DNA from: Planctomycetota bacterium
GTDB lineage: Bacteria > Planctomycetota > Phycisphaerae > Phycisphaerales > UBA1924
Reading direction: 5' to 3'
Length of the DNA stretch: 62,883 bases
NCBI GenBank assembly: GCA_039822905.1
Contig: JBCBMF010000001.1
Span: 1-62,883, forward strand
The notes beneath the pieces are model-generated. The model did no database searches and was not told where the DNA came from. It saw nothing but the letters and a program-made list of their open reading frames with translations. Below, one piece after another: positions 102-12,107 of the stretch (positions are counted from its first letter, which is position 1; each line of letters begins with the position of its first letter). Made by a program: the position numbers and the translations under genes.

Positions 102-1532
102 TCAATCAAGCCGAAGGGTCAGCGTCTGCCGATCCCCGTCACGCTCGATGCCAATGCGAACCCTCTTGCCGCGCAGAGCCTCTGCCCGCCCCATCGCCGC
201 GTAGAACGAGAGCTCGTCGGTCACCTCTTCGCCGTTGACGCTGAGGATGAGATCGCCGCGGCGGAACCCCGCGCGGGCGGCATCTCCCCGCTCGAACACG
301 CCCTCGACCTGCACCATCGGCTGCAGGTTCGCCGACCGCAACTCACGGACCTGGATCCCCGCGCGCCACAACGCCGGCCGGAGCGCCGACCGCTGGAGCG
401 TACTATCCGGGAACTCCGCGAGATGCACCTCAGTGCTCACGGATTCGCCGTCGCGCCACAATTCCACATCGATCCGTGCACCGGGTCTCGCCGTCGAGAT
501 CACCGAACTCAAATGATGCCATTCGCGGATCTCGTTCTCGCCGATCCGTGTGATGATGTCGCCCGGCTCGATGCCCGCGCGATCCGCGGCCAGCCCGTCT
601 TCAACCGAAGCAACCAGAATGCCTCGGCCGACAAATTCGCCCTCGCGATCGAGCACATCCGTCGACTGGCCGCGACCGCGGGCCGAGGTGATGCCGAGGA
701 ACCCCCGCCGGACCTCGCCCTGGTCGACGATCTGACCAACGACAGACTCCACGACACCCAGCGGGATCGCGAAGCTGATGCCCGCCGACTGCCCCTGGTT
801 GTTCGAGCTCTGCCGCGAACCCGTCGCGATCGCAACGTTCATACCAACAAGCTCGCCGTACACGTTCACCAGCGGCCCGCCCGAGTTGCCCGGATTCACA
901 GCCGCGTCTGTCTGGATGTAATTCGTGAACGCGTTGCCGGTCGAACCCGTCCGCGGGTTCCGCCCAAGTCCTGAAACGATGCCCTCGCTCATGCTGAACT
1001 TGAAGTTAAACGGCGAACCGAACGCGTACACACGATCACCGAGCGCGACACGCCGCGACGAGTCACGCTTGACCGGAATCACACCAATCCCGGGATCGAC
1101 CTTCAGCACAGCGATATCGGTAAACGCGTCGGCCTCAACAAGTCGCGCCGTTGCCGTGCGCCCGTTCGCAAACTCGATCTGCGCCGACTCCGCCGCACCG
1201 ATGACGTGCGCATTCGTAACAATGTGCCCCTCGGTGTCGTACACCCATCCCGAACCCGAGGCACCGGGCCCAAAGATCGCCTCACCGTCCCCGGCGCGGA
1301 GCGTCACCTCGATGTGCACAACGGACGGCTTCACGGCCTCGGCCACCCGACGCGTCGCGCGGTCGATCCGCTCAAGAATGTCGTCGTCCTGCAACACCTG
1401 GCGAGCAAGAACGACCTCGGCCTGTGTGCGGGTGAACACCAACCGCTGCACTATCACCGGCCCGAGGAACGTCACTGCGGCAAGCACCGCGAGCACAACA
1501 AAGGCCGGTCCAAACGCCACAATCCGTCGCAT
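102..1532 (-). CDS. htrA: HtrA/DegP-family periplasmic serine endoprotease with two PDZ domains
   Basis: 476-aa ORF. N-terminal membrane anchor/signal (FGPAFVVLAVLAAVTFLG). S1C catalytic motifs TNAHV, DIAVLKV and GNSGGPL. Two PDZ-like segments follow (GDIITRIG, GDLILSVNG). ATG at 1532 checked. Confidence 0.92.
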   Translation of the reverse strand: MRRIVAFGPAFVVLAVLAAVTFLGPVIVQRLVFTRTQAEVVLARQVLQDDDILERIDRATRRVAEAVKPSVVHIEVTLRAGDGEAIFGPGASGSGWVYDTEGHIVTNAHVIGAAESAQIEFANGRTATARLVEADAFTDIAVLKVDPGIGVIPVKRDSSRRVALGDRVYAFGSPFNFKFSMSEGIVSGLGRNPRTGSTGNAFTNYIQTDAAVNPGNSGGPLVNVYGELVGMNVAIATGSRQSSNNQGQSAGISFAIPLGVVESVVGQIVDQGEVRRGFLGITSARGRGQSTDVLDREGEFVGRGILVASVEDGLAADRAGIEPGDIITRIGENEIREWHHLSSVISTARPGARIDVELWRDGESVSTEVHLAEFPDSTLQRSALRPALWRAGIQVRELRSANLQPMVQVEGVFERGDAARAGFRRGDLILSVNGEEVTDELSFYAAMGRAEALRGKRVRIGIERDGDRQTLTLRLD

Positions 1533-1718
1533 CAGCGGCTCCTGCTCGGCGTGATCCCCACGCCGCTCCGTTCATCGTCCGTAGACGCTTTCGCTCTCGA
1601 TCTCTCTCGGTTGCACCAGACATCTGGCACGCAAACCGCCCGGCTCACCGGTTCGGCCCGCACAAGCCAACGGCCACAGCACCACATTACCGGACAGCAC
1701 CCGATCGCACAACCGCTG

Positions 1719-2603
1719 CTAGGCCCGACCCCGGGCCTCGAACCGCTCGAGCTCTCCCTCGCGCATCGCGTAGCCCTTCCCGCCGATCGACCGAGCACGC
1801 ACGCGCCGAGCCCAGTCAACACCGGCTTCCTGCAACGCGGGCCCAAGCGACGCCGACCGCTCGGCAAACCGCGGCGGCGCGTCCGTCATTCCGACCAGGT
1901 CCTGCAACACAAGGATCTGCCCATCGCACGCCGCGCCCGCGCCGATGCCAATCACCGGCACACGCGTCCGCTCAAGAACCCGGTCCGCAACAACGTCGGG
2001 TACGGCCTCAATCAGCAGCATCACCGCGCCGGCCTGCTCGAGCGCCACGGCATCGTCGACGATCCGCTGCGCTTCGGCCGCGGTCCGACCCGCCGATCCA
2101 TAACCGCCGTCGAGCGCCGCCGTCTGAGGCCGCGACCCAACATGCCCACACACCGCGATGCCTGCACCAGCCATTCTCGCAACAAGGGGCGCGAACCCCG
2201 CGTCCGCTTCGAGCTTCACGATGTCCGCCGTCCCCTCGGTCATGAACCGACCCGCGTTGCGGACCGCTTCGTCGTCGCCGCAGTGATAGCTCAGAAACGG
2301 CATGTCGCCCATGACCATCGCACGATCAGCGCCCCTCCGCACGGCCGCGGTTAGCGCGATCGCGATGTCTAGCGGCATGTCGATCGTCCGCTCGTAGCCC
2401 AGGATCAACTCCGCCGCCGTGTCGCCGATCAGCAACACATCGACGCCCGCGCGATCGAGCCACCGAGCGCTCGTCGCGTCGTAGCACGTCAGGCACGCGA
2501 ACGCATTACCCCGAGCCTTCATAGCCCGCAGCGTCCGCATCGTCACCCGCTCACGCGACGAACCCGCTACCGTCGTCTCAGCCACACCATTTCCCTGCGC
2601 CAT
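1719..2603 (-). CDS. panB: 3-methyl-2-oxobutanoate hydroxymethyltransferase (ketopantoate hydroxymethyltransferase)
   Basis: Collinear with PanB: FACLTCYDA...LLIGDTAAELILGYERT...MGDMPFLSYH...VKLE...VCGHVG. The longest ORF reaches 2633. I prefer the ATG at 2603 because it does not overlap the divergent GTG at 2619. Confidence 0.9.
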   Translation of the reverse strand: MAQGNGVAETTVAGSSRERVTMRTLRAMKARGNAFACLTCYDATSARWLDRAGVDVLLIGDTAAELILGYERTIDMPLDIAIALTAAVRRGADRAMVMGDMPFLSYHCGDDEAVRNAGRFMTEGTADIVKLEADAGFAPLVARMAGAGIAVCGHVGSRPQTAALDGGYGSAGRTAAEAQRIVDDAVALEQAGAVMLLIEAVPDVVADRVLERTRVPVIGIGAGAACDGQILVLQDLVGMTDAPPRFAERSASLGPALQEAGVDWARRVRARSIGGKGYAMREGELERFEARGRA

Positions 2604-2618
2604 ACATCGACAAGGATA

Positions 2619-3350
2619 GTGCCGATCAAGCACCGCCGCCTCACACCCGAGCTGATGGACGACCCCGCCGTCGATCGCGACGCGCTCGACGACGCTCTCG
2701 GCTACATCCGAGGCGTCAACAAACGCCTCGGCGGCGTGTCATCGCTCATCCGCCACCTCGAACGCTGGAGCACCCGCTGGCCGACCGACCAGCCGATCAC
2801 CCTACTCGACATCGCCACGGGCTCGGCTGACCTGCCGCTCGAAGCCGTCCGCTGGGCCAAAGCCCGCGGCTTCGACCTGCGCGTCACCGGCGTCGATGTC
2901 CACGAAACCACGCTCGAACTCGCCCGGGAGCACATCGCCCGAGAGCCCGACCTCGCCGGGTCGATCACACTCGATCTCGCCGACGCGCTAACGCTCGACG
3001 AGACCTTCGCCGACGACAGCTTCGACTACGTCCACGCCGGCCTGTTCCTCCACCACCTGACCGACATCCAGATCAAGCTCGTGCTCCGCATGATGGACCG
3101 CATCGCCAGACGCGGCATCGTCTGGAACGATCTCGTGCGATCCACCGTCGGCCGAGCGTTCATCCACGTCGCAACGATCGGCAAGCCCGCGATCATCCGC
3201 CACGACGCCCGCGTCTCCGTCGAAGCCGGCTTCACCAAAAACGAGGTCCTCGACTACGCCAAGCGGCTCGACCTGACCTATTGCAACTACGAGTGGAATC
3301 TGTTTACGCACCGCTTCACACTCGCCGGGGAGCGCCGCAATGCGTGGTAG
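2619..3350 (+). CDS. class I SAM-dependent methyltransferase
   Basis: 243-aa ORF with a GTG start. SAM motif I LLDIATGSADLP, and later FDYVHAGLFLHHL and GIVWNDL, which are typical of Methyltransf_12/25-type enzymes. Confidence 0.8.
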   Translation: MPIKHRRLTPELMDDPAVDRDALDDALGYIRGVNKRLGGVSSLIRHLERWSTRWPTDQPITLLDIATGSADLPLEAVRWAKARGFDLRVTGVDVHETTLELAREHIAREPDLAGSITLDLADALTLDETFADDSFDYVHAGLFLHHLTDIQIKLVLRMMDRIARRGIVWNDLVRSTVGRAFIHVATIGKPAIIRHDARVSVEAGFTKNEVLDYAKRLDLTYCNYEWNLFTHRFTLAGERRNAW

Positions 3351-4413
3351 CCTCGTCGCGATCATCGGCGCGGGCGCAGGCGGCGCTTCGCTCGCGCTCA
3401 GGCTGGCACGCGCCGGCTTCGATGTCACCATCATCGAGTCGCAAGCCTTCCCACGAGCCAAGGTCTGCGGCGAGTTCATCTCGCCCGCGGCAACGCCAGA
3501 TCTTGAATCGGTCCTGACGCCCGACGAGCTGCGCGAAGCGGGAGCCACCCGCGTGCGCACGCTCGCGCTCGAACTCGGCGACAGGCAACGCACGTGGAAC
3601 ATGCCCGAGCCTGCATGGGCGCTGAGCCGACGCTCGCTCGATGCGCTGCTGATCGAGAAGGCATCAGCCGCAGGCGCGCACGTCCTCCAGCCCGTCCGTG
3701 TCGCCAGCGTCGAGTACAACGATAACTCAGCGACGATCCACTTCGCCTCGCGCGACAGCATCGACGCCGACCTTGTCATCCACGCCGACGGCTCGGGCCG
3801 ATTCGACCCGGCCGGCCCGACACCCAAAGCCAAATCACTCGTTGGCCTCAAGTGCCACGCCAGACCGAACAGGCCCATCCGCGGCATCCGAATGCGATCG
3901 GCAGCCGGCGTCTACTGCGGAGCCATCGGCATCGAAGACGGCCTCGCCACCTTCGCCATGTGCGCAACCCCCCAGGCCCTAACTGCACACAAGGGCGACC
4001 GCGACGCCCTGCTCGCGGCCGTCTGGCCCGGCTTCACACCCAACCAACGCGAAGGCCCCTGGATGACCTCCGCCGTCGCACGATCGCGGTACACCCGCCC
4101 CGGCCACCCGCGATCTTTCCGCATCGGCAACGCCGCCGCCGCCGTTGATCCGGTCGGCGGCGAAGGCATCGGCCTCGCGCTCTGGTCCGCCGCCAGACTC
4201 GCCGAGCTGCTGGAAACAGAGACCGACCTGCGCGCAATCCACGATCGGTTCGCCACGCTTTACAAGCGCCGCCTACGCACACGCTTGCCTGCCTGCCGCT
4301 CCGCCGCCGAGGTGCTGCTCAGACCCAGACTCGTGCGAGCACTCTGGCCGCTGCTCAGCGTGCCGTCGCTCACCGTCAGACCCTGGTACGCCCTCACCGG
4401 CAAGCCCGCCTGA
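3340..4413 (+). CDS. NAD(P)/FAD-dependent oxidoreductase (geranylgeranyl-reductase-like flavoprotein)
   Basis: N-terminal dinucleotide fold VAIIGAGAGGASLALRLARAGFDVTIIE, then CGEFISP, and a C-terminal GNAAAAVDPVGGEGI motif. Overlaps the upstream methyltransferase by 11 nt, so they probably form an operon. Confidence 0.8.
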   Translation: MRGSLVAIIGAGAGGASLALRLARAGFDVTIIESQAFPRAKVCGEFISPAATPDLESVLTPDELREAGATRVRTLALELGDRQRTWNMPEPAWALSRRSLDALLIEKASAAGAHVLQPVRVASVEYNDNSATIHFASRDSIDADLVIHADGSGRFDPAGPTPKAKSLVGLKCHARPNRPIRGIRMRSAAGVYCGAIGIEDGLATFAMCATPQALTAHKGDRDALLAAVWPGFTPNQREGPWMTSAVARSRYTRPGHPRSFRIGNAAAAVDPVGGEGIGLALWSAARLAELLETETDLRAIHDRFATLYKRRLRTRLPACRSAAEVLLRPRLVRALWPLLSVPSLTVRPWYALTGKPA

Positions 4414-4451
4414 CCGCGTCGGCCACGCCCACCCGGGCTACGCTGCCCGCC

Positions 4452-5006
4452 ATGGAGTGGTACATCCCCTTTCTCATCTTCCTCGCACGCATCGGCGACG
4501 TGTCCATCGGCACCGTCCGCACCATGCTCATGCTGCAGGGCTACCGACTCACCGCCGCATCGCTCGGCGTCATCGAGGTCACCATCTGGGTGCTCGCCGT
4601 CGCGGGAGTCGTGACCAACCTCACCGAACCGACGGCCATCGCCGGCTACGCCCTCGGCTTCGGCACCGGCGTCTACGTCGGCGTCTGGATCGAGGACAAG
4701 CTTGCGCTCGGCTACCGCATGGTCCGCATCGTGTGCACCGAAGAAAGCGTGCACCTGCCCGACCACCTGCGCGAGAAGGGTTTCCGCGTCACGCAGGTCA
4801 ACGGCAAGGGCCGCGAGGCCCACGTGCACATCGCCTTCACCGTGATCAAACGCAAAGAGCTCGCGCAGCTCCGGCACGCCGTCGCCGAGGTCGCGCCCAA
4901 GGCGTTTGTCACCGTCGAACGCGTCGACCGCCACGAGGGTGCCAGCTTCGGCGATGTCCGCGCGATCCGCCGCCGCCGGCTACTCCGCCAGCACGTTCGA
5001 AAGTAA
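4452..5006 (+). CDS. UPF0316/DUF2179-family membrane protein
   Basis: 184 aa. Three N-terminal TM helices (YIPFLIFLARIGDVSIGTVRTM..., GVIEVTIWVLAVAGV, AIAGYALGFGTGVYVGVWI), then a soluble ferredoxin-like tail. This architecture matches the UPF0316 family. Confidence 0.7.
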   Translation: MEWYIPFLIFLARIGDVSIGTVRTMLMLQGYRLTAASLGVIEVTIWVLAVAGVVTNLTEPTAIAGYALGFGTGVYVGVWIEDKLALGYRMVRIVCTEESVHLPDHLREKGFRVTQVNGKGREAHVHIAFTVIKRKELAQLRHAVAEVAPKAFVTVERVDRHEGASFGDVRAIRRRRLLRQHVRK

Positions 5007-5020
5007 TCTGCGAACTCCGG

Positions 5021-6055
5021 TTACTGGCCGAAGAACGCCCGGTGATGCTCCAGAATCTCCTCGGCCATCGCCTCGGTCGATTCATCATCCTCCTGGTTCG
5101 GCTCGAACGAACCGCCCAGAATCAGCGCATCCTCACGCGGGAACATGTATTTGTAGCTGTCGTGCACGATGTACCCGAGCTCCTGCGGCTCAAGGTGCAC
5201 GAGCACGCCCCGCGCGCCGTACATCTTCTGGTCGTTGAACACAGTCTTGCTGCCCATCGCCAGGCAGTTCACGACCACATCGCCCTCGACGGCTTTCGCA
5301 TCCGCGAGCGACTCGACCCGCTGCTCGATGAAGCCGACCTTCTTCTTCTGGCAGGCCTCGTGAAGCGTCCGCATGAACCGCGGCGTGTGCATGAAGTTCG
5401 CGCGAAACAGCCGGCCCTCCTTGATCGAGCCCGGCTTCGGCTCGGCCTTAGTCAGCTCCCGCGGCGCACCCATCACGCCCGACTCGAAGTACTCCGGGTG
5501 CTCCTCGGAATCCGCCGGCTCGTAGACCGGCAGCTCCTCCACGCCCCAGAGCCCGCGGTCGAGCATGCCAAAGCGCTTGGCCGACCGACGCAGGATGTCG
5601 TTAAACCGCGCCCGATCCGCCTTCTTCTTCGGGAAGTCGATGCCCGTCGGCAGCCAGAGCGCACCGGCAACGACACTCGTCGTCTCCTCGCCGAAGCTCT
5701 CGGCGACCACCGTCACGCTGTGGCCCTGCTCTGCAAGAACAAGCGCACTCGTCAGGCCGGTCACGCCGCCACCGAGCACTGCGACGTCGGCTTTCTCACC
5801 GGCGGCCTCCTTGACCATCTCGGCAACGAGCTCGGCGCACCCCCAGCTCAGCGTCACGCCGCAGCCGCCCTGGCCGTAGTTGTGGATCACCGTTCGGCTG
5901 CCCAGCTTGCCGGGCTGCAGCTTCAGCCCGCCCTCCCGGCAGGGGCGGATACCCGCGACCACGCGCATCACCATGTCATCCGAAAGGTCCGGCACGGGCA
6001 GCTTGCCGCCCATCGACCGGCTCGAGCCACGCGGCTTGCTCATCATCCGACTCAT
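5021..6055 (-). CDS. D-amino-acid-oxidase-family FAD flavoprotein with circularly permuted segment order
   Basis: 344 aa. The DAO signature VIHNYGQGGCGVTLSWGCA lies at aa 56-74, upstream of the Rossmann motif VAVLGGGVTGLTSAL at aa 91-105. The remainder is collinear with DAAO (TSVVAGALWLP, VESL..GDVVVNCLAMGS, GARGVLVHL, LILGGSFEPN). The ATG at 6055 overlaps the upstream stop as ATGA. Confidence 0.85.
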   Translation of the reverse strand: MSRMMSKPRGSSRSMGGKLPVPDLSDDMVMRVVAGIRPCREGGLKLQPGKLGSRTVIHNYGQGGCGVTLSWGCAELVAEMVKEAAGEKADVAVLGGGVTGLTSALVLAEQGHSVTVVAESFGEETTSVVAGALWLPTGIDFPKKKADRARFNDILRRSAKRFGMLDRGLWGVEELPVYEPADSEEHPEYFESGVMGAPRELTKAEPKPGSIKEGRLFRANFMHTPRFMRTLHEACQKKKVGFIEQRVESLADAKAVEGDVVVNCLAMGSKTVFNDQKMYGARGVLVHLEPQELGYIVHDSYKYMFPREDALILGGSFEPNQEDDESTEAMAEEILEHHRAFFGQ

Positions 6056-7083
6056 GGTTTCGTTAGCTCCACATCAAGGCGCTCGCCGTCCGGCAGCGTC
6101 AACTCGAACTGCATCCCACCGCCATCAAGACGCCGGAACACCATCCCTCCAAGGTCATCGGTCCCCTTGGATCGTAGGACCAAACCCGTCTCGCGAACCC
6201 GGCCGACCACCTCCCACACCAGCGACCGCAGCGGCTCGTTCAGCCCGACCTCGCGGATCTGCCACGACGCCGTGCGCGCATCCCAAGCCGCGACAAGCAC
6301 CGCCGACACCCGAACATCCCCGCGGTCAACCTCAGCCGACACAAGAAACCCGAGCCCACGCAGCACGCTCGACACCCGAACATCCACGCCCTCGGCCGAC
6401 CACTCCCCAACCATCCAGTCCGTCAGCCGTGCCTGCTCGGCATCCACTGCGGGAGTCGCGGGCACTGCATCGATGCGCATCGGGCCGGGCTGGCTCTCCG
6501 ACTCCCGCACATAGTCCATCGCCCACGTCGCCGTCCACACCTGCCCGTTCACCGGCCGCTGCAGCTGCACGCGGAACGCATTGCCCGAGACATCCCCGAC
6601 CACCGACCGCGTCGAAAGGTACTGGTCGACGTCGAAGTTCCCCAGGTACACCCGCGGCGGGTGCAGCACGATTCGGCCGTCCTCGAACGAGCCCTCGGTC
6701 CGCGTGAACTGGGCCGTCAGCGGTTCGCCCGCGGGCCAGTTCTTCAGCGTCGCCCACCGCCCCCGGACCGGGTCGAAGTACCGCAGTGTCAGCCCACAGA
6801 ACGCCTCGATCGCCCCATCTTCGCCCGCCCACCGTTCGAGAAGCAGCCGGCCGTCGAGCAGCAGCTCCGCCGACGAGCGAGCCACCCCCGCGTTGACGAA
6901 GACCTCGTTCTCAAGGTCCTGCCGTGTGTTCTCGATCAGCCAAGTGCCTGACCAAAAACCGAAATCATCGACAACCCGCCCGGATTCAACCGGCGGAGGC
7001 TCAGCCACCGTCTGCCCGAAGCCGTTGCCACCGCTCAAACTAGCGAGAATGCACAAGATGGGCAGGGCAAAAGGGTTCCGCAT
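6052..7083 (-). CDS. secreted hypothetical protein with two internal W-x-G-x-W beta-rich repeats
   Basis: The track ORF runs to 7587, but the upstream part is Arg/Asp-rich junk. A signal peptide MRNPFALPILCILASLSGGNGFGQT starts at the ATG at 7083 (checked). Two halves begin FGFWSGTWLIEN and LTDWMVGEWSAEG. Confidence 0.7.
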   Translation of the reverse strand: MRNPFALPILCILASLSGGNGFGQTVAEPPPVESGRVVDDFGFWSGTWLIENTRQDLENEVFVNAGVARSSAELLLDGRLLLERWAGEDGAIEAFCGLTLRYFDPVRGRWATLKNWPAGEPLTAQFTRTEGSFEDGRIVLHPPRVYLGNFDVDQYLSTRSVVGDVSGNAFRVQLQRPVNGQVWTATWAMDYVRESESQPGPMRIDAVPATPAVDAEQARLTDWMVGEWSAEGVDVRVSSVLRGLGFLVSAEVDRGDVRVSAVLVAAWDARTASWQIREVGLNEPLRSLVWEVVGRVRETGLVLRSKGTDDLGGMVFRRLDGGGMQFELTLPDGERLDVELTKP

Positions 7084-7122
7084 CCGGAAATCGTAGGACG
7101 GCAGGAGGTAGGCTGTGAAGCG

Positions 7123-7899
7123 ATGGCGGCCAGGCGCGTGCACAAGCCGATCTGGGGCTTCGGGTGGCTCGGCTGGAGCGGGATTGCCCTGCTGCTCGCG
7201 ATCATCACCGCCGTTGGCGTTGGTTTCGATATCCAGCACGCACTGATTCGAGCGATCCACGGAACACTCGGGTTCGACGCAACAGTGACGTACGTCGCGC
7301 GTGTTCAGACCTTCACGTGGTTCGGCATCCTCGGCTGCACCGCCAACGTCATCGTTCTGGCATCGATCGCCATCGGCTGGCGGCTCGCGTCGCGCCCGAT
7401 CCCGTGGTGGGCATGGGCCGCGGTCTCCATCGTGTGCGTCTCGTCGGCGATGCTCGCGCTCGAGCTTTCCAGTTCGCCCATGCTGCTGCCGCTCCGCACC
7501 CAGATGCAACTCTCGAGCTACGAGGCCAACCTGCTGGTCCATCTCAGCATGCTGGGGTTGCTCGCGATCTTCGTGCTCGCGTTGCAACGGACGCGCACCG
7601 GCGCAGCGCTGTGGCTAGCCGCGATTCTCGTCGCGGGAACAGACACGATCCTCGCGATCAACGACGTGGTCCCGCCGGCGTGGCACCTGTCACGCAGGCC
7701 ACCCAGCGGCCTCGTGTACATCGAGATCGGCCTGCTGCCCGTCGCGATGCAACTCCTCATTCTCGCGGCGATGCTGCACATCGGCATCTCATCGCGCCGC
7801 GCACCGGTAGAAGGGTGCTGCCAGTCATGCGGCTACGACCGCGTCGGACTTGCCCAAGACGCACCTTGCCCCGAATGCGCAGCAGCCCCGGAGGCCTAA
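7123..7899 (+). CDS. polytopic membrane protein with C-terminal zinc-ribbon motif (paralogue A)
   Basis: 258 aa with about 6-7 hydrophobic helices. The C-terminus is CCQSCGYDRVGLAQDAPCPEC (nt 7816-7878). Confidence 0.7.
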   Translation: MAARRVHKPIWGFGWLGWSGIALLLAIITAVGVGFDIQHALIRAIHGTLGFDATVTYVARVQTFTWFGILGCTANVIVLASIAIGWRLASRPIPWWAWAAVSIVCVSSAMLALELSSSPMLLPLRTQMQLSSYEANLLVHLSMLGLLAIFVLALQRTRTGAALWLAAILVAGTDTILAINDVVPPAWHLSRRPPSGLVYIEIGLLPVAMQLLILAAMLHIGISSRRAPVEGCCQSCGYDRVGLAQDAPCPECAAAPEA

Positions 7900-7903
7900 A
7901 CAC

Positions 7904-8740
7904 ATGGCGACACACAGCATTCGACGTCAGTTCACCGGCTTCGGCCCGATCGGCTGGCTCGCGGTGGGCCTGGGGCTGGTCGTCGCCGTCCCGCTCGCAC
8001 TCGACTCGGTGAATCACCGGATCACCGAGATGCTGTTTGTCTCGCTCGGTGCCGATCCGTCGATCCGCGCGATCGACCAGTGGACGCGGCTTGTCCGCCT
8101 CATCGCGTTCAACACCTCGAGCGGCCTGCTGCTGTTCCTCATCGTCGTTGCGGGCTGGTGGGCGGCGCGGCGACCTCTCGCCGGCAATCGTCTGGCCTTT
8201 GCGGTTGCGCTCTGCTTCGTCTGGCCGCTCGCGATCATCTACGTGTTCGCCGATCGCCCGACGGGGCCGCTCAACATGGCGTGGAACCTGTCCAGGGCCC
8301 ACGCACTCCGCGAGCTCGCACTGCTCAGCATGCTCCCTGTCCTCGGCGTCGTGGCGCTATCACAACGCAGAACAACAACCGCGATCACGCTCTGGATTGC
8401 AGGTACGCTCTTCGCCGCGTGGCCGCTGATCCTCGGCTGGCTCGATAGCAGCCACTCCAACCACCGCTACATCATGACCGGGTGGCGCTTCGCCCAGGGT
8501 GCATGGACGTACTGGTCAGAGGCCGGCACGCTCGCTCCCTTTGCGTGCTTCGCCGGGGCGATGGCGCACGCCGCTCACCGCAGCCGGCAGCTCGCACGAA
8601 CCTCGGAGTGCGAGCACTGCGAGTACAGCCGAGTGGGCCTCGCCGCGGACGCACCCTGCCCGGAGTGCGGCTACGTGCCCGCCGTCAACCCATCTCCTTC
8701 ACCGCCGCCAGCACCTCCTCCGCGTGGCCCGGCACCTTGA
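7904..8740 (+). CDS. polytopic membrane protein with C-terminal zinc-ribbon motif (paralogue B)
   Basis: ATG at 7904, 5 nt after the stop of paralogue A. Multiple TM helices. CEHCEYSRVGLAADAPCPEC at nt 8609-8668, followed by a Pro-rich tail. The 3' end overlaps convergent bcp by 56 nt. Confidence 0.65.
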   Translation: MATHSIRRQFTGFGPIGWLAVGLGLVVAVPLALDSVNHRITEMLFVSLGADPSIRAIDQWTRLVRLIAFNTSSGLLLFLIVVAGWWAARRPLAGNRLAFAVALCFVWPLAIIYVFADRPTGPLNMAWNLSRAHALRELALLSMLPVLGVVALSQRRTTTAITLWIAGTLFAAWPLILGWLDSSHSNHRYIMTGWRFAQGAWTYWSEAGTLAPFACFAGAMAHAAHRSRQLARTSECEHCEYSRVGLAADAPCPECGYVPAVNPSPSPPPAPPPRGPAP

Positions 8741-9974: not shown

Positions 9975-12107
9975 CTACTCGACGTCCTTGCCCTCGACCA
10001 CATCGGTGATCGGCGGCGCCTCGTGCGCGTCATCGCCGCCGTCCTTGATCTTGCGGAAGTAGCCGTGGTACGCGCCCATGGCCTTCGCGCCGAAGATCCA
10101 CATGATCGGGATGTTGGCCACGAGCATGACGCCGAGACCGAGCGTCGTCCACATGTCGAGCTCGGAGTCGGTGCCGATGATCGCCCGATCGCCGTCGGGC
10201 CCGAACATCGGCATCGCCAGGATGCACGTCAGCAGGATCAGAAGCGAGTAGATGACCTTGTACAGGAACACCGCAGGCTTCGCGGACTTCTCGCCGTGCG
10301 TGCCGAAGAAGTAATACACGCCCTGCTCGCCGTAGTAGCTCCACGAGATCATCGTTGACAGAGCAAACAGCCACGCGGCGACCGTCACGAGATACATGCC
10401 GAGACCGGGCGTGACCCGGTCGAACGCGTACGCGGTCATCGAAGCGCCCGCGTAGTCGCCGAAGAGCCCGACATCGAGGGTGCCGTCGTCACGCTGGCGG
10501 AAGCGTGGCTCCAAAGAAGACTCGAAGCTGCTCCAATTGGCAATCCACTGACCCGCCTCGTTTCGGCTCACGGTGCCGGTGACCTTTCGGAGTTCACGAC
10601 CCGTATTTTCGTCAGTATCGGCTGCCACGATCATGAAGATCGTCTCGCCGTCGCGCCATCCCGCGGCGAGTTCCTCCGACCGCCGGATCTCGCGAGCCTC
10701 GGCGGACATCGGCGGCAGCGGTGAGGACTCCATGGCCCATGCCGCAGTATCGCCTGGGAACAACGCGGAACGCACCCGGAGCACAGTCACGCCCTCATCC
10801 ACCTCCACAGCTTCGAACGAGACACTGGCAGCGCTGCCATCAACAGCGACGTTGCCCCCGACGCTCTTCTCAAGGCCGTTCGAAAGCGAAACCATGACAT
10901 GCACACTCTCGACGTCACTCAATGGCTGGCCCTCGCCCGCGGCGAGACCAGAAAGTGGTCCAACAACGAGGTCGCCTGAATCGTTAACGCTGGCGACCGG
11001 TGCACTCTCAAGAGCAACGATCGCGGTCTTCGCATAGCTCAGCTGAACCATCCCAGGCTCGCCAAAGCTCGCCTCCGCGTCGCGGTTGTACGCGCCACTC
11101 GACATGATCACGAGCGCCGTCAGCGTGCAGACCACGATCGTATCGATGAAGGGCTCAAGCCCCGCGACAACACCCTCGCGCACAGGCTCGTCGGTCTTCG
11201 CGGCCGAGTGAGCGATCGGCGACGATCCCTGACCTGCCTCGCTCGAGAACAGTGCCCGCTTCACGCCCCACATTGCGGCGTACGCGAACGTGCCGCCGAG
11301 GAACGCACCCGTGGGCTCGGCCGACTCGCCGCCGAGGAACGGCGGCAGGCCGCTCTTGACGATCAGCCCCAGCATCGCCGGGATCTCACCAAAGTTCACG
11401 ATCAGCACATAGCCGGCGGCCAGCACATAGATCACGCACATGAAAGGCACGATCCGGCCGGCGACAGCACCGATCCGCTTGATGCCACCGATGATCACAA
11501 GACCCACAACAACGGTCAGCACGATGCCGGTCGCAACCTGCGGGATGCCGAAGTACGTGTTCGTCACATCGGCCACGTTCCACGCCTGGAACATGTTGCC
11601 ACCCGTGATCGCCGAGATAATCAGCGTGACAACGAAGACGCCGCCGATGAGCGAGCCCAGCGGCCCGAGCCCCCACTCCTTGAAGCCCTTCTTGACAACG
11701 AACATCGGGCCGCCGTGCGGGTTCTCCGGGTCGTCGGTGTTGCGGTAGAGCATCGACTGCGTGACCTCGGTCATCTTGATGGCCATGCCGAGGAAGCCGA
11801 TGACCCACATCCAGAAGATCGCGCCCGGGCCGCCAAGCGCAACGGCGATCGCGACACCCGCGATGTTGCCAAGCCCAACCGTCGCCGAGAGCGCCGCGGA
11901 GAGCGCCTGGAAGTGATTGATCGCACCCGGGTCGTGCGAGTCGTCGTACTTGCCCCGCACGACCGACACACCGTGGGTCAGCGCCCGGAACTGGCCGAAG
12001 CCGGTCCAGAGCGTGAACGCGAGCCCCGTGAACAGCAGCGCGTACACGGTGTAGTCTGAGAACAGGAACCCGTTGATGGTCCCGATGATGTCGTTGACAG
12101 AGTCCAT
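9975..12107 (-). CDS. alanine/glycine:cation (sodium) symporter, AGCS family, with a large internal insertion
   Basis: N-terminus FRALTHGVSVVRGKYDD...GAINHFQALSAALSATVGLGNIAGVAIAVALGGPGAIFWMW is the AGCS signature. The C-terminal core is STMISWSYYGEQ. About 215 non-hydrophobic residues (aa 341-555) are inserted between them. Confidence 0.9.
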   Translation of the reverse strand: MDSVNDIIGTINGFLFSDYTVYALLFTGLAFTLWTGFGQFRALTHGVSVVRGKYDDSHDPGAINHFQALSAALSATVGLGNIAGVAIAVALGGPGAIFWMWVIGFLGMAIKMTEVTQSMLYRNTDDPENPHGGPMFVVKKGFKEWGLGPLGSLIGGVFVVTLIISAITGGNMFQAWNVADVTNTYFGIPQVATGIVLTVVVGLVIIGGIKRIGAVAGRIVPFMCVIYVLAAGYVLIVNFGEIPAMLGLIVKSGLPPFLGGESAEPTGAFLGGTFAYAAMWGVKRALFSSEAGQGSSPIAHSAAKTDEPVREGVVAGLEPFIDTIVVCTLTALVIMSSGAYNRDAEASFGEPGMVQLSYAKTAIVALESAPVASVNDSGDLVVGPLSGLAAGEGQPLSDVESVHVMVSLSNGLEKSVGGNVAVDGSAASVSFEAVEVDEGVTVLRVRSALFPGDTAAWAMESSPLPPMSAEAREIRRSEELAAGWRDGETIFMIVAADTDENTGRELRKVTGTVSRNEAGQWIANWSSFESSLEPRFRQRDDGTLDVGLFGDYAGASMTAYAFDRVTPGLGMYLVTVAAWLFALSTMISWSYYGEQGVYYFFGTHGEKSAKPAVFLYKVIYSLLILLTCILAMPMFGPDGDRAIIGTDSELDMWTTLGLGVMLVANIPIMWIFGAKAMGAYHGYFRKIKDGGDDAHEAPPITDVVEGKDVE

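Follow-up and report, generated by a model that had tools for sequence, protein, structure and literature searches.

A D-amino-acid oxidase homologue with circularly permuted segment order in a Planctomycetota contig, and the large bacterial family to which it belongs

Does the gene at positions 5021-6055, on the minus strand of a contig from a Planctomycetota bacterium (JBCBMF010000001.1, assembly GCA_039822905.1), encode a D-amino-acid oxidase (DAAO) whose chain is arranged in a different order from that of the canonical enzymes? DAAO serves as a model enzyme in the study of flavin catalysis; it is also a drug target in schizophrenia and finds industrial use in cephalosporin processing and biosensors, and natural circular permutation of proteins is a known phenomenon. 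A first-pass annotation of the stretch analysed here (positions 1 to 62,883 of the contig, 62,883 nucleotides, referred to as the window) had proposed that the segment that is C-terminal in canonical DAAO (segment E) comes first in this protein and that the rest of the chain (segments A to D) follows it, each part being present once and the old C-terminus being joined to the old N-terminus. We found that this proposal holds by four lines of evidence, namely swapped profile hits, a single uninterrupted hit on doubled canonical sequences, a confident structural model, and conservation of the order among relatives. The product of 5021-6055 is almost certainly a homologue of the DAAO and D-aspartate oxidase (DASPO) clade with a circularly permuted chain in the order E-ABCD. 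The parts of the gene, all on the minus strand, are as follows.

5021-6055: the whole permuted DAAO-family gene, a single open reading frame (ORF) of 344 amino acids (aa) with an ATG start and its stop at 5021-5023.
6002-6055: N-terminal leader MSRMMSKPRGSSRSMGGK, residues 1-18, clade-specific and predicted to be disordered, with no hydrophobic signal-peptide core.
5795-6001: segment E, residues 19-87, the part that closes the chain in canonical DAAO, made up of three strands followed by a long helix and carrying R37 and the HNYGxGG flavin-binding motif.
5834-5890: DAO signature VIHNYGQGGCGVTLSWGCA, residues 56-74, aligning with DAAO 305-323 and including G64 and T68.
5945-5947: R37, equivalent by residue-by-residue alignment to the substrate-carboxylate-binding R283 of pig and human DAAO.
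5789-5806: junction or linker AAGEKA, residues 84-89, where the old C-terminal helix is joined to the old N-terminal beta-strand (predicted local distance difference test, pLDDT, about 98).
5699-5788: Rossmann beta-alpha-beta unit, residues 90-119, internal and not N-terminal, with E119 as the acidic residue ending strand 2.
5756-5773: GxGxxG motif, translated as GGGVTG, residues 95-100.
5024-5794: segment ABCD, residues 88-344, collinear with canonical DAAO from residue 1 to about 267.
5147-5149: Y303, aligned with the active-site Y228 of pig DAAO and at least 90% conserved in the family alignment A1.
5030-5074: new C-terminal helix EAMAEEILEHHRAFF, residues 328-342, a helix in the model, in which I334, H338 and R339 are invariant.

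The reading frame, its 344-aa length and the ATGA overlap between its ATG and the stop of the upstream ORF (6052-7113) were exact as first annotated, and so, on translation, were the positions assigned to the DAO signature and the GxGxxG motif. The signature, a PROSITE-type pattern [LIVM](2)-H-[NHA]-Y-G-x-[GSA](2)-x-G-x(5)-G-x-A, is matched at every position by VIHNYGQGGCGVTLSWGCA, and the flavin fingerprint HNYGQGGCGVT opens the long helix of segment E. Segment ABCD carries the motifs TTS (residues 125-127), AGALWLP (130-136) and NCLAMGS (263-269) as well as Y303, and the chain stops where canonical enzymes go on into ...PTLKD...GFRP, a continuity that is taken from the doubled-sequence comparison described below. 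The collinear order of the DAAO family, with the Rossmann unit first and HNYG last, is absent from the protein, while the other sequence-level features that define the family are present, including a GxGxxG motif (G95-G100) with an acidic residue (E119) closing strand 2.

The swapped order is visible with every profile that we compared. The Pfam DAO model (PF01266) scored 125.2 bits (cut-off 27.9), split over two stretches, as the first-pass annotation had expected, and the main stretch places residues 90-342 on profile positions 1-297 of 353. When PDB sequences were searched with phmmer, residues 22-83 aligned with 268-332 of pig DAAO (E 3e-6) and residues 91-320 with 3-245 of the same chain (E 3e-9), and human DASPO gave a swapped two-piece match too; the only strong relatives among all PDB sequences were D-aspartate oxidase and D-amino-acid oxidases, each matched as two swapped pieces. 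A profile built from 41 members of the family likewise fell as two swapped pieces on all 17 DAAO and DASPO sequences in the PDB, its positions 78-318 corresponding to DAAO 2-256, with E values of 1e-24 to 1e-38 for these chains and about 5e-6 for the next family. The search of PDB sequences with this profile returned no solved chain collinear with it, and neither the Pfam DAO model, the PDB sequences nor the family profile gave the contiguous, unpermuted alignment that would have spoken for an ordinary DAAO. The swapped two-piece match is far beyond chance.

As the standard test for circular permutation at the sequence level, we ran hmmsearch with the A1 family profile against canonical DAAOs, both single and doubled head to tail (14 doubled targets, among them human DAAO). 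On single canonical sequences the family hidden Markov model (HMM) yields two domains in swapped order. On doubled sequences it yields one end-to-end domain (HMM positions 7-326) that runs over the junction of copy 1 and copy 2 in 12 of the 14 targets; in doubled P0239 and P0226, the junction-crossing domain ends at about HMM position 125-130. The single domain on doubled P0224 scored 233.7 bits, close to the sum of the 153.5 and 74.5 bits of the separate pieces. Because one domain crosses the doubled copies, the junction of the window protein, ...MVKEAAGEK/ADVAVLGGG, is reproduced by a canonical C-terminus set directly before a canonical N-terminus.

Among known enzymes, the window protein is close to DAAO (EC 1.4.3.3; pig 1KIF/1DAO, human 2DU8, Rhodotorula 1C0P, Rasamsonia 7CT4), with which it shares PF01266, the GxGxxG Rossmann start, TTS, AGxLWxP, NCxGxG and HNYGxGG motifs and a predicted two-domain fold (Foldseek E about 1e-12) at a structure-based identity of about 22%. 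The difference lies in the order, ABCD-E in DAAO and E-ABCD here, with new termini at about DAAO residue 267/268. The best PDB sequence match is human DASPO (6RKF; E 2e-21 with the single sequence and 4.6e-38 with the profile), which aligns in two swapped pieces and, unlike the window protein, has the canonical order. The closest non-permuted relatives are canonical bacterial DAAO-like proteins such as P0224, P0182 and P0233 (about 310-340 aa, 34-36% identical, ABCD-E), and their C- and N-termini, set head to tail, match the permuted family's junction with no gap. ThiO, sarcosine oxidase and other GR2-type flavoenzymes share the two-domain flavin adenine dinucleotide (FAD) fold and the Rossmann motif, but are much more distant (profile E about 5e-6, TM about 0.5) and all have the canonical order. 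Natural circular permutation is known from other proteins (concanavalin A/favin, saposin/swaposin, some DNA methyltransferases and transaldolases); there the fold is retained, the chain ends have moved and a short linker bridges the former termini, as is likewise predicted for the present protein.

The structure prediction that the first-pass annotation had suggested gave a confident single fold. With the 41-sequence alignment, AlphaFold2 reached a pLDDT of 93.6 and a predicted template-modelling (TM) score of 0.91, and only residues 1-20 were uncertain. The model elements run from three strands and a long helix (residues 29-85), through the Rossmann beta-alpha-beta (90-118) and the remainder, to the final helix at 328-342; the first four of them (strands 29-40, 45-51 and 54-60 and helix 63-85, pLDDT 93-98) correspond to DAAO 268-332 by sequence alignment, and the Rossmann elements are strand 90-94, helix 98-109 and strand 113-118. 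The top 33 Foldseek matches in the PDB were all DAAO or DASPO, with E values down to 7.5e-13, while glycine oxidase and other GR2 enzymes ranked below them at E 1e-6 or worse. Foldseek and sequence searches of the PDB together found no solved structure with the permuted order. Based on the sequence alignment and the confident single-fold model, the moved segment is predicted to be structurally equivalent to that of DAAO, and the three-dimensional fold and active site are predicted to be the same as those of DAAO. In this arrangement, the last 70 or so residues of the canonical enzyme (one substrate-domain strand, a meander of two strands and the HNYGxGG helix pointing at the flavin) come first, a short surface linker, AAGEKA, connects them to the Rossmann beta-alpha-beta with which canonical chains begin, and the chain ends after the helix that precedes segment E in canonical enzymes.

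The initial homology search returned 1016 relatives; the best 120 were all 312-380 aa long and aligned collinearly over 90-100% of the query, with identities as low as 44%, and HxYGxGG stands before GxGxxG in 117 of the 120. For a larger set of 387 proteins, recovered with permuted queries and classified with separate HMMs for the two segments, 371 were E-ABCD, two were fragments and only 14 had the canonical ABCD-E order, so that the order is conserved in relatives, a point that the first-pass annotation had recommended checking. The breadth of the family is considerable. When one genome per species was scanned, the gene turned up in 187 species, nearly all of them Phycisphaerales, with single matches in metagenome-assembled genomes (MAGs) of Hyphomonas and Pirellulaceae, and the window protein itself is 99% identical to a protein of the Planctomycetota MAG contig JBCBHW010000001.1. 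At E <= 0.001, 4132 clusters matched when 1.8 billion cluster representatives were searched exhaustively, and a profile made from 58 distant permuted members matched at least 7978 proteins at E <= 1e-10. Among the 120 best matches of the broad permuted-family profile, all 117 newly listed proteins were permuted. Proteins matched by this profile come from Polyangia, Pseudomonadales and Woeseiaceae, among other groups, and one is encoded in the finished genome of an isolate, Woeseia oceani (CP016268.1). These proteins are annotated in databases as 'FAD-dependent oxidoreductase', 'D-amino-acid oxidase' or 'glycine/D-amino acid oxidase-like'. The window gene is therefore an ordinary member of a very large permuted family, in which the arrangement is heritable and conserved and not a one-off or a peculiarity of the window.

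A collapsed tandem duplicate or a chimeric join that merely mimics a permutation has become exceedingly improbable in the light of these counts. A window cut through two tandem DAAO genes could in principle look alike, and we found no evidence that it was. The gene consists of one 344-aa frame in which every segment occurs a single time, its flanking genes are unrelated to it (a putative secreted protein upstream and a convergent DUF5698/DUF2179 gene downstream), and the 371 relatives with the same order come from independent assemblies, including megabase contigs and the finished Woeseia oceani genome, so that the misassembly raised as a possible refutation fails.

The permutation would also lose its meaning if translation began downstream of residue 88. 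The HNYG piece would then be untranslated, and the gene would be a truncated one or a pseudogene, yielding a C-terminally truncated DAAO. Internal Met codons occur at residues 4, 5, 15, 28 and 30, and none lies between residue 31 and the Rossmann motif. Conservation argues in the opposite direction, since within the family invariant positions are most densely packed in residues 19-87, with R37, P38, C39, R40, H58, Y60, G61, G63, G64, G66, T68 and G72 all invariant between residues 37 and 72 in proteins that are 43-56% identical. The leader MSRMMSKPRGSSRSMGGK is 100% identical in relatives that are 74-92% identical over the whole protein, and its codons differ only synonymously (for example, TCG AGC versus TCT TCG); in two related loci that do not have the upstream gene (L004 and L005), a Shine-Dalgarno-like AGGAGG stands just before the ATG of M1. 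Segment E is, in addition, modelled at high confidence within the fold, and without it the substrate-binding Arg and the flavin-binding helix would be lost. By these patterns the N-terminal piece is translated and under selection at the protein level, a start at M1 is supported by the synonymous-only variation and by the upstream AGGAGG in relatives, and the downstream start that the first-pass annotation had named as a possible objection has next to no probability. Most other members begin a few residues ahead of LPxPDLSD, which makes the 18-residue leader specific to the sub-clade of the window protein. As an observation in its own right, this leader is better conserved than the enzyme; it is basic, rich in Ser and, by prediction, disordered (pLDDT 49-68), and it is not a signal peptide.

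What the permuted enzyme does can be approached through its active site. Residues that hold the substrate in pig and human DAAO find conserved counterparts (R283 in R37, Y228 in Y303, G313 in G64 and T317 in T68), of which R37, G64 and T68 are invariant in the family; R37, numbered R55 in the broad family alignment A3, is invariant there too. From this we infer a functional FAD-binding enzyme of the DAAO/DASPO clade. By analogy with established DAAO chemistry, FAD would be bound non-covalently, and R37 and Y303 would hold the carboxylate of a D-alpha-amino acid while hydride passes from C-alpha to flavin N5 to give an imino acid. The imino acid would be released and would hydrolyse to a 2-oxo acid and ammonium, and the flavin would be re-oxidised by O2, with formation of H2O2, or by another acceptor. 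On the conserved residues, we lean slightly towards FAD-dependent oxidation of D-amino acids as the reaction catalysed.

Location and genomic context offer further hints. The window protein lacks a signal peptide and would be expected to work in the cytoplasm. About half of the wider family (52 of 130 proteins in one set and 64 of 117 in another) have a Tat-like N-terminal extension, with an RRxFL-like motif and a hydrophobic stretch; only one of 10 tested proteins passed the curated Tat model TIGR01409, one more being a weak Pfam match, and we therefore call these signals 'Tat-like' and not proven. Judged by these extensions, such members outside Phycisphaerales would be exported to the periplasm as folded flavoproteins; to our knowledge, the characterised DAAOs are cytosolic or peroxisomal. 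Further wider-family members look Sec-like, and several permuted proteins outside Phycisphaerales have a lipoprotein-like Cys. One member, P0251 (587 aa), has a Sec-like signal and joins the permuted DAO to a C-terminal Peptidase_M15_4 domain (D-Ala-D-Ala carboxypeptidase; E 2.3e-25), a fusion that is a possible Rosetta-stone link to D-Ala freed from peptidoglycan. A second candidate peptidase fusion, P0185 (1042 aa), was rejected, as its only resemblance to the M15 domain of P0251 is the motif HxxGLAIDI (E 6e-4 in one pairwise comparison) and Pfam gave no match. Neighbours of distant members include an Asp/Glu racemase, a pyridoxal-phosphate (PLP) enzyme, Peptidase_S58, Peptidase_M74, a D-aminoacyl-tRNA deacylase, beta-lactamase-family proteins and Amidohydro_3. 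Together, the fusion and these neighbours hint at, and fit, a role in D-amino-acid or peptidoglycan turnover, and both are anecdotal. We also observed that in Woeseia oceani (locus L081 of CP016268.1, 5439-9143) a Tat-type permuted DAO gene has an Asp/Glu racemase family gene, a PLP-dependent enzyme and Peptidase_S58 as neighbours, and that a small gene of 165 aa overlaps the DAO start by 4 nt.

Several considerations weigh against this reading of the locus, in part or as a whole. It draws on sequence comparison and on a predicted model of the family, and sequence by itself cannot fix the substrate range, the electron acceptor or the choice between oxidase and dehydrogenase. Structurally, the Foldseek matches reach a TM score of only about 0.62 over some 270 columns of the 344 residues with an aligner that is sequential and not permutation-aware, a value that is expected because such an aligner can use residues 88-344 and not the displaced 70 or so. 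In the active site, the DAAO lid loop (pig 216-228) is shortened and its Y224 has no equivalent; the yeast DAAO enzyme has a shortened lid loop as well. The genomic context is heterogeneous, with no shared partner gene in an all-against-all BLAST of the neighbours at five distant loci. Within Phycisphaerales, a Na+:alanine symporter gene, which counts among the functional hints, lies about 4 kb from the window gene, and the fetched 6-kb flanks contain one at 59 of 80 related loci; HtrA and PanB are equally conserved neighbours, so that its proximity is probably inherited synteny. The HtrA-PanB-DAO arrangement itself is housekeeping synteny and uninformative on function. As regards the history of the family, separate segment HMMs found no protein with two E segments among the 387 fetched, and a clean split between canonical and permuted sequences appeared in 9 of 100 bootstraps of a tree whose distances are saturated (1.2-1.5 substitutions per site). 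Permuted topology and D-amino-acid oxidation taken jointly are, in our estimate, likely, a compromise between near-certainty on the topology and the slight lean on the chemistry.

The missing lid is also one of the points in favour of a real permuted flavoenzyme with a different reaction, such as a quinone- or cytochrome-linked dehydrogenase, or an enzyme acting on glycine, D-2-hydroxy acids, opines or another amine. No curated NCBIfam model reached its cut-off with the window protein: the best match, ThiO (TIGR02352), scored 58.1 bits against 250.8, and the DadA models NF001933 and NF009074 scored 30.9 against 383 and 28.8 against 494, respectively, so that the family is without a specific name in NCBIfam. 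Cys39 and Cys65, conserved in the Phycisphaerales clade, have no DAAO counterpart; a c-type cytochrome-like gene follows one distant member; and production of H2O2 in the periplasm, where many members would be exported, would be unusual. Set against these points, the family profile is closer by many orders of magnitude to DAAO and DASPO than to glycine oxidase (E about 5e-6), the Arg/Tyr carboxylate clamp of DAAO and the equivalent of G313 are conserved, and a D-Ala-D-Ala carboxypeptidase domain is attached to one of the members. We consider a different chemistry a serious contender, though the less probable one, and D-amino-acid oxidation remains the reaction that we favour.

How did the permuted order arise? 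It is the derived one, because the canonical order is common to DAAO, DASPO and the more distant GR2 enzymes. All permuted members sampled have their breakpoint and junction at identical positions, and the junction (A1 columns of about 121-148) is the main length-variable region within the conserved core of the family alignment, as would be expected of joined termini. Most likely the permutation arose once, by fusion of the old termini, for example through trimming of a tandem duplicate, a plausible route with which the doubled-sequence result agrees. Of the 13 canonical sequences placed in a neighbour-joining tree with 176 de-permuted ones, 12 form a clan without permuted members, and the long-branch P0248 falls elsewhere. 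Other routes, such as a gene that was split and re-fused in reverse order or repeated independent permutations, draw some support from the lack of an E-ABCD-E or tandem-fused intermediate among the 387 proteins and from a tree without a clean split. Such origins are nonetheless unlikely given the constant breakpoint and junction and the direct joining of canonical C-terminus to canonical N-terminus at that junction, and the tree, with its saturated distances, has little power to speak for them. One protein, P0264, which a regular-expression search had picked out as a candidate duplication intermediate with HxxGxxG at both ends, proved to be a chance match.

The permuted family is real and widespread and was apparently unrecognised; it is a topological variant of a familiar enzyme and not a new kind of system. 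We found no description of a permuted DAAO or GR2-type flavoenzyme in the full-text literature, in which subscription-only papers were outside our coverage, and the first-pass annotation had known of none. The architecture has been missed in annotation because standard domain models break the proteins into partial matches. A more far-reaching picture, which we offer tentatively and think somewhat unlikely to hold in full, is that this is the first recognised natural permutation in the DAAO/GR2 class and an ancient single-origin clade of thousands of bacterial proteins, most of them Tat-exported and oxidising peptidoglycan-derived D-amino acids, with the cytoplasmic Phycisphaerales form as a derived, core-genome version. 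The Tat-like signals and the carboxypeptidase fusion hint at an unstudied periplasmic D-amino-acid turnover in bacteria. For specialists in flavoenzymes and protein evolution, the family would indicate that the Rossmann motif need not be N-terminal for folding or FAD binding in the DAAO class, and it may have engineering value, as the cut at about 267/268 and the fused old termini offer nature-validated new termini for domain insertion, split enzymes and sensors.

The genes around the permuted DAO gene that were considered in the window are the following.

1719-2633, minus strand: PanB, ketopantoate hydroxymethyltransferase (Pfam E 5.6e-86).
2619-3350, plus strand: methyltransferase, between PanB and the DAO gene.
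3340-4413, plus strand: FAD-binding monooxygenase-like gene, between PanB and the DAO gene.
4452-5006, convergent with the DAO gene: DUF5698/DUF2179 gene, downstream of it.
6052-7113, minus strand: upstream coupled gene, 353 aa, with a signal-peptide-like start (MRNPFALPILCILASLSGG...) and no Pfam match.
9975-12107, minus strand: Na+:alanine symporter family gene, 710 aa (Pfam E 1.8e-101, in two stretches of a 392-position profile).

The upstream gene is translationally coupled to the permuted DAO gene by the ATGA overlap and probably co-transcribed with it, and a sigma-70-like promoter candidate at 7119-7090 is a match to the consensus only. Only close relatives have a homologue of this upstream gene next to permuted DAO (L001-L003 and L006-L008), and a more distant copy is present in L020. 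At least two of the three genes between PanB and the DAO gene recur there in the closest relatives, L001-L003; in L014, the one more distant locus that we examined in detail, PanB directly adjoins the DAO gene, which suggests an insertion in the lineage of the window. An apparent conserved neighbour in tblastn, 'orf1206' (1206-2354, plus strand, 382 aa), was discarded as an antisense shadow of PanB, and an ORF of 789 aa that runs across the DAO gene (4145-6514, plus strand) looks like another such shadow, which are common in GC-rich DNA. Beyond the upstream gene, two adjacent, overlapping ORFs on the plus strand (7123-7899 and 7850-8740) have no Pfam match and appear by eye to be multi-pass membrane proteins. 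They share the C-terminal motif C-x2-C-x-Y-x-R-V-G-L-A-x-D-A-P-C-P-E-C and look like tandem paralogues with a zinc-ribbon-like tail.

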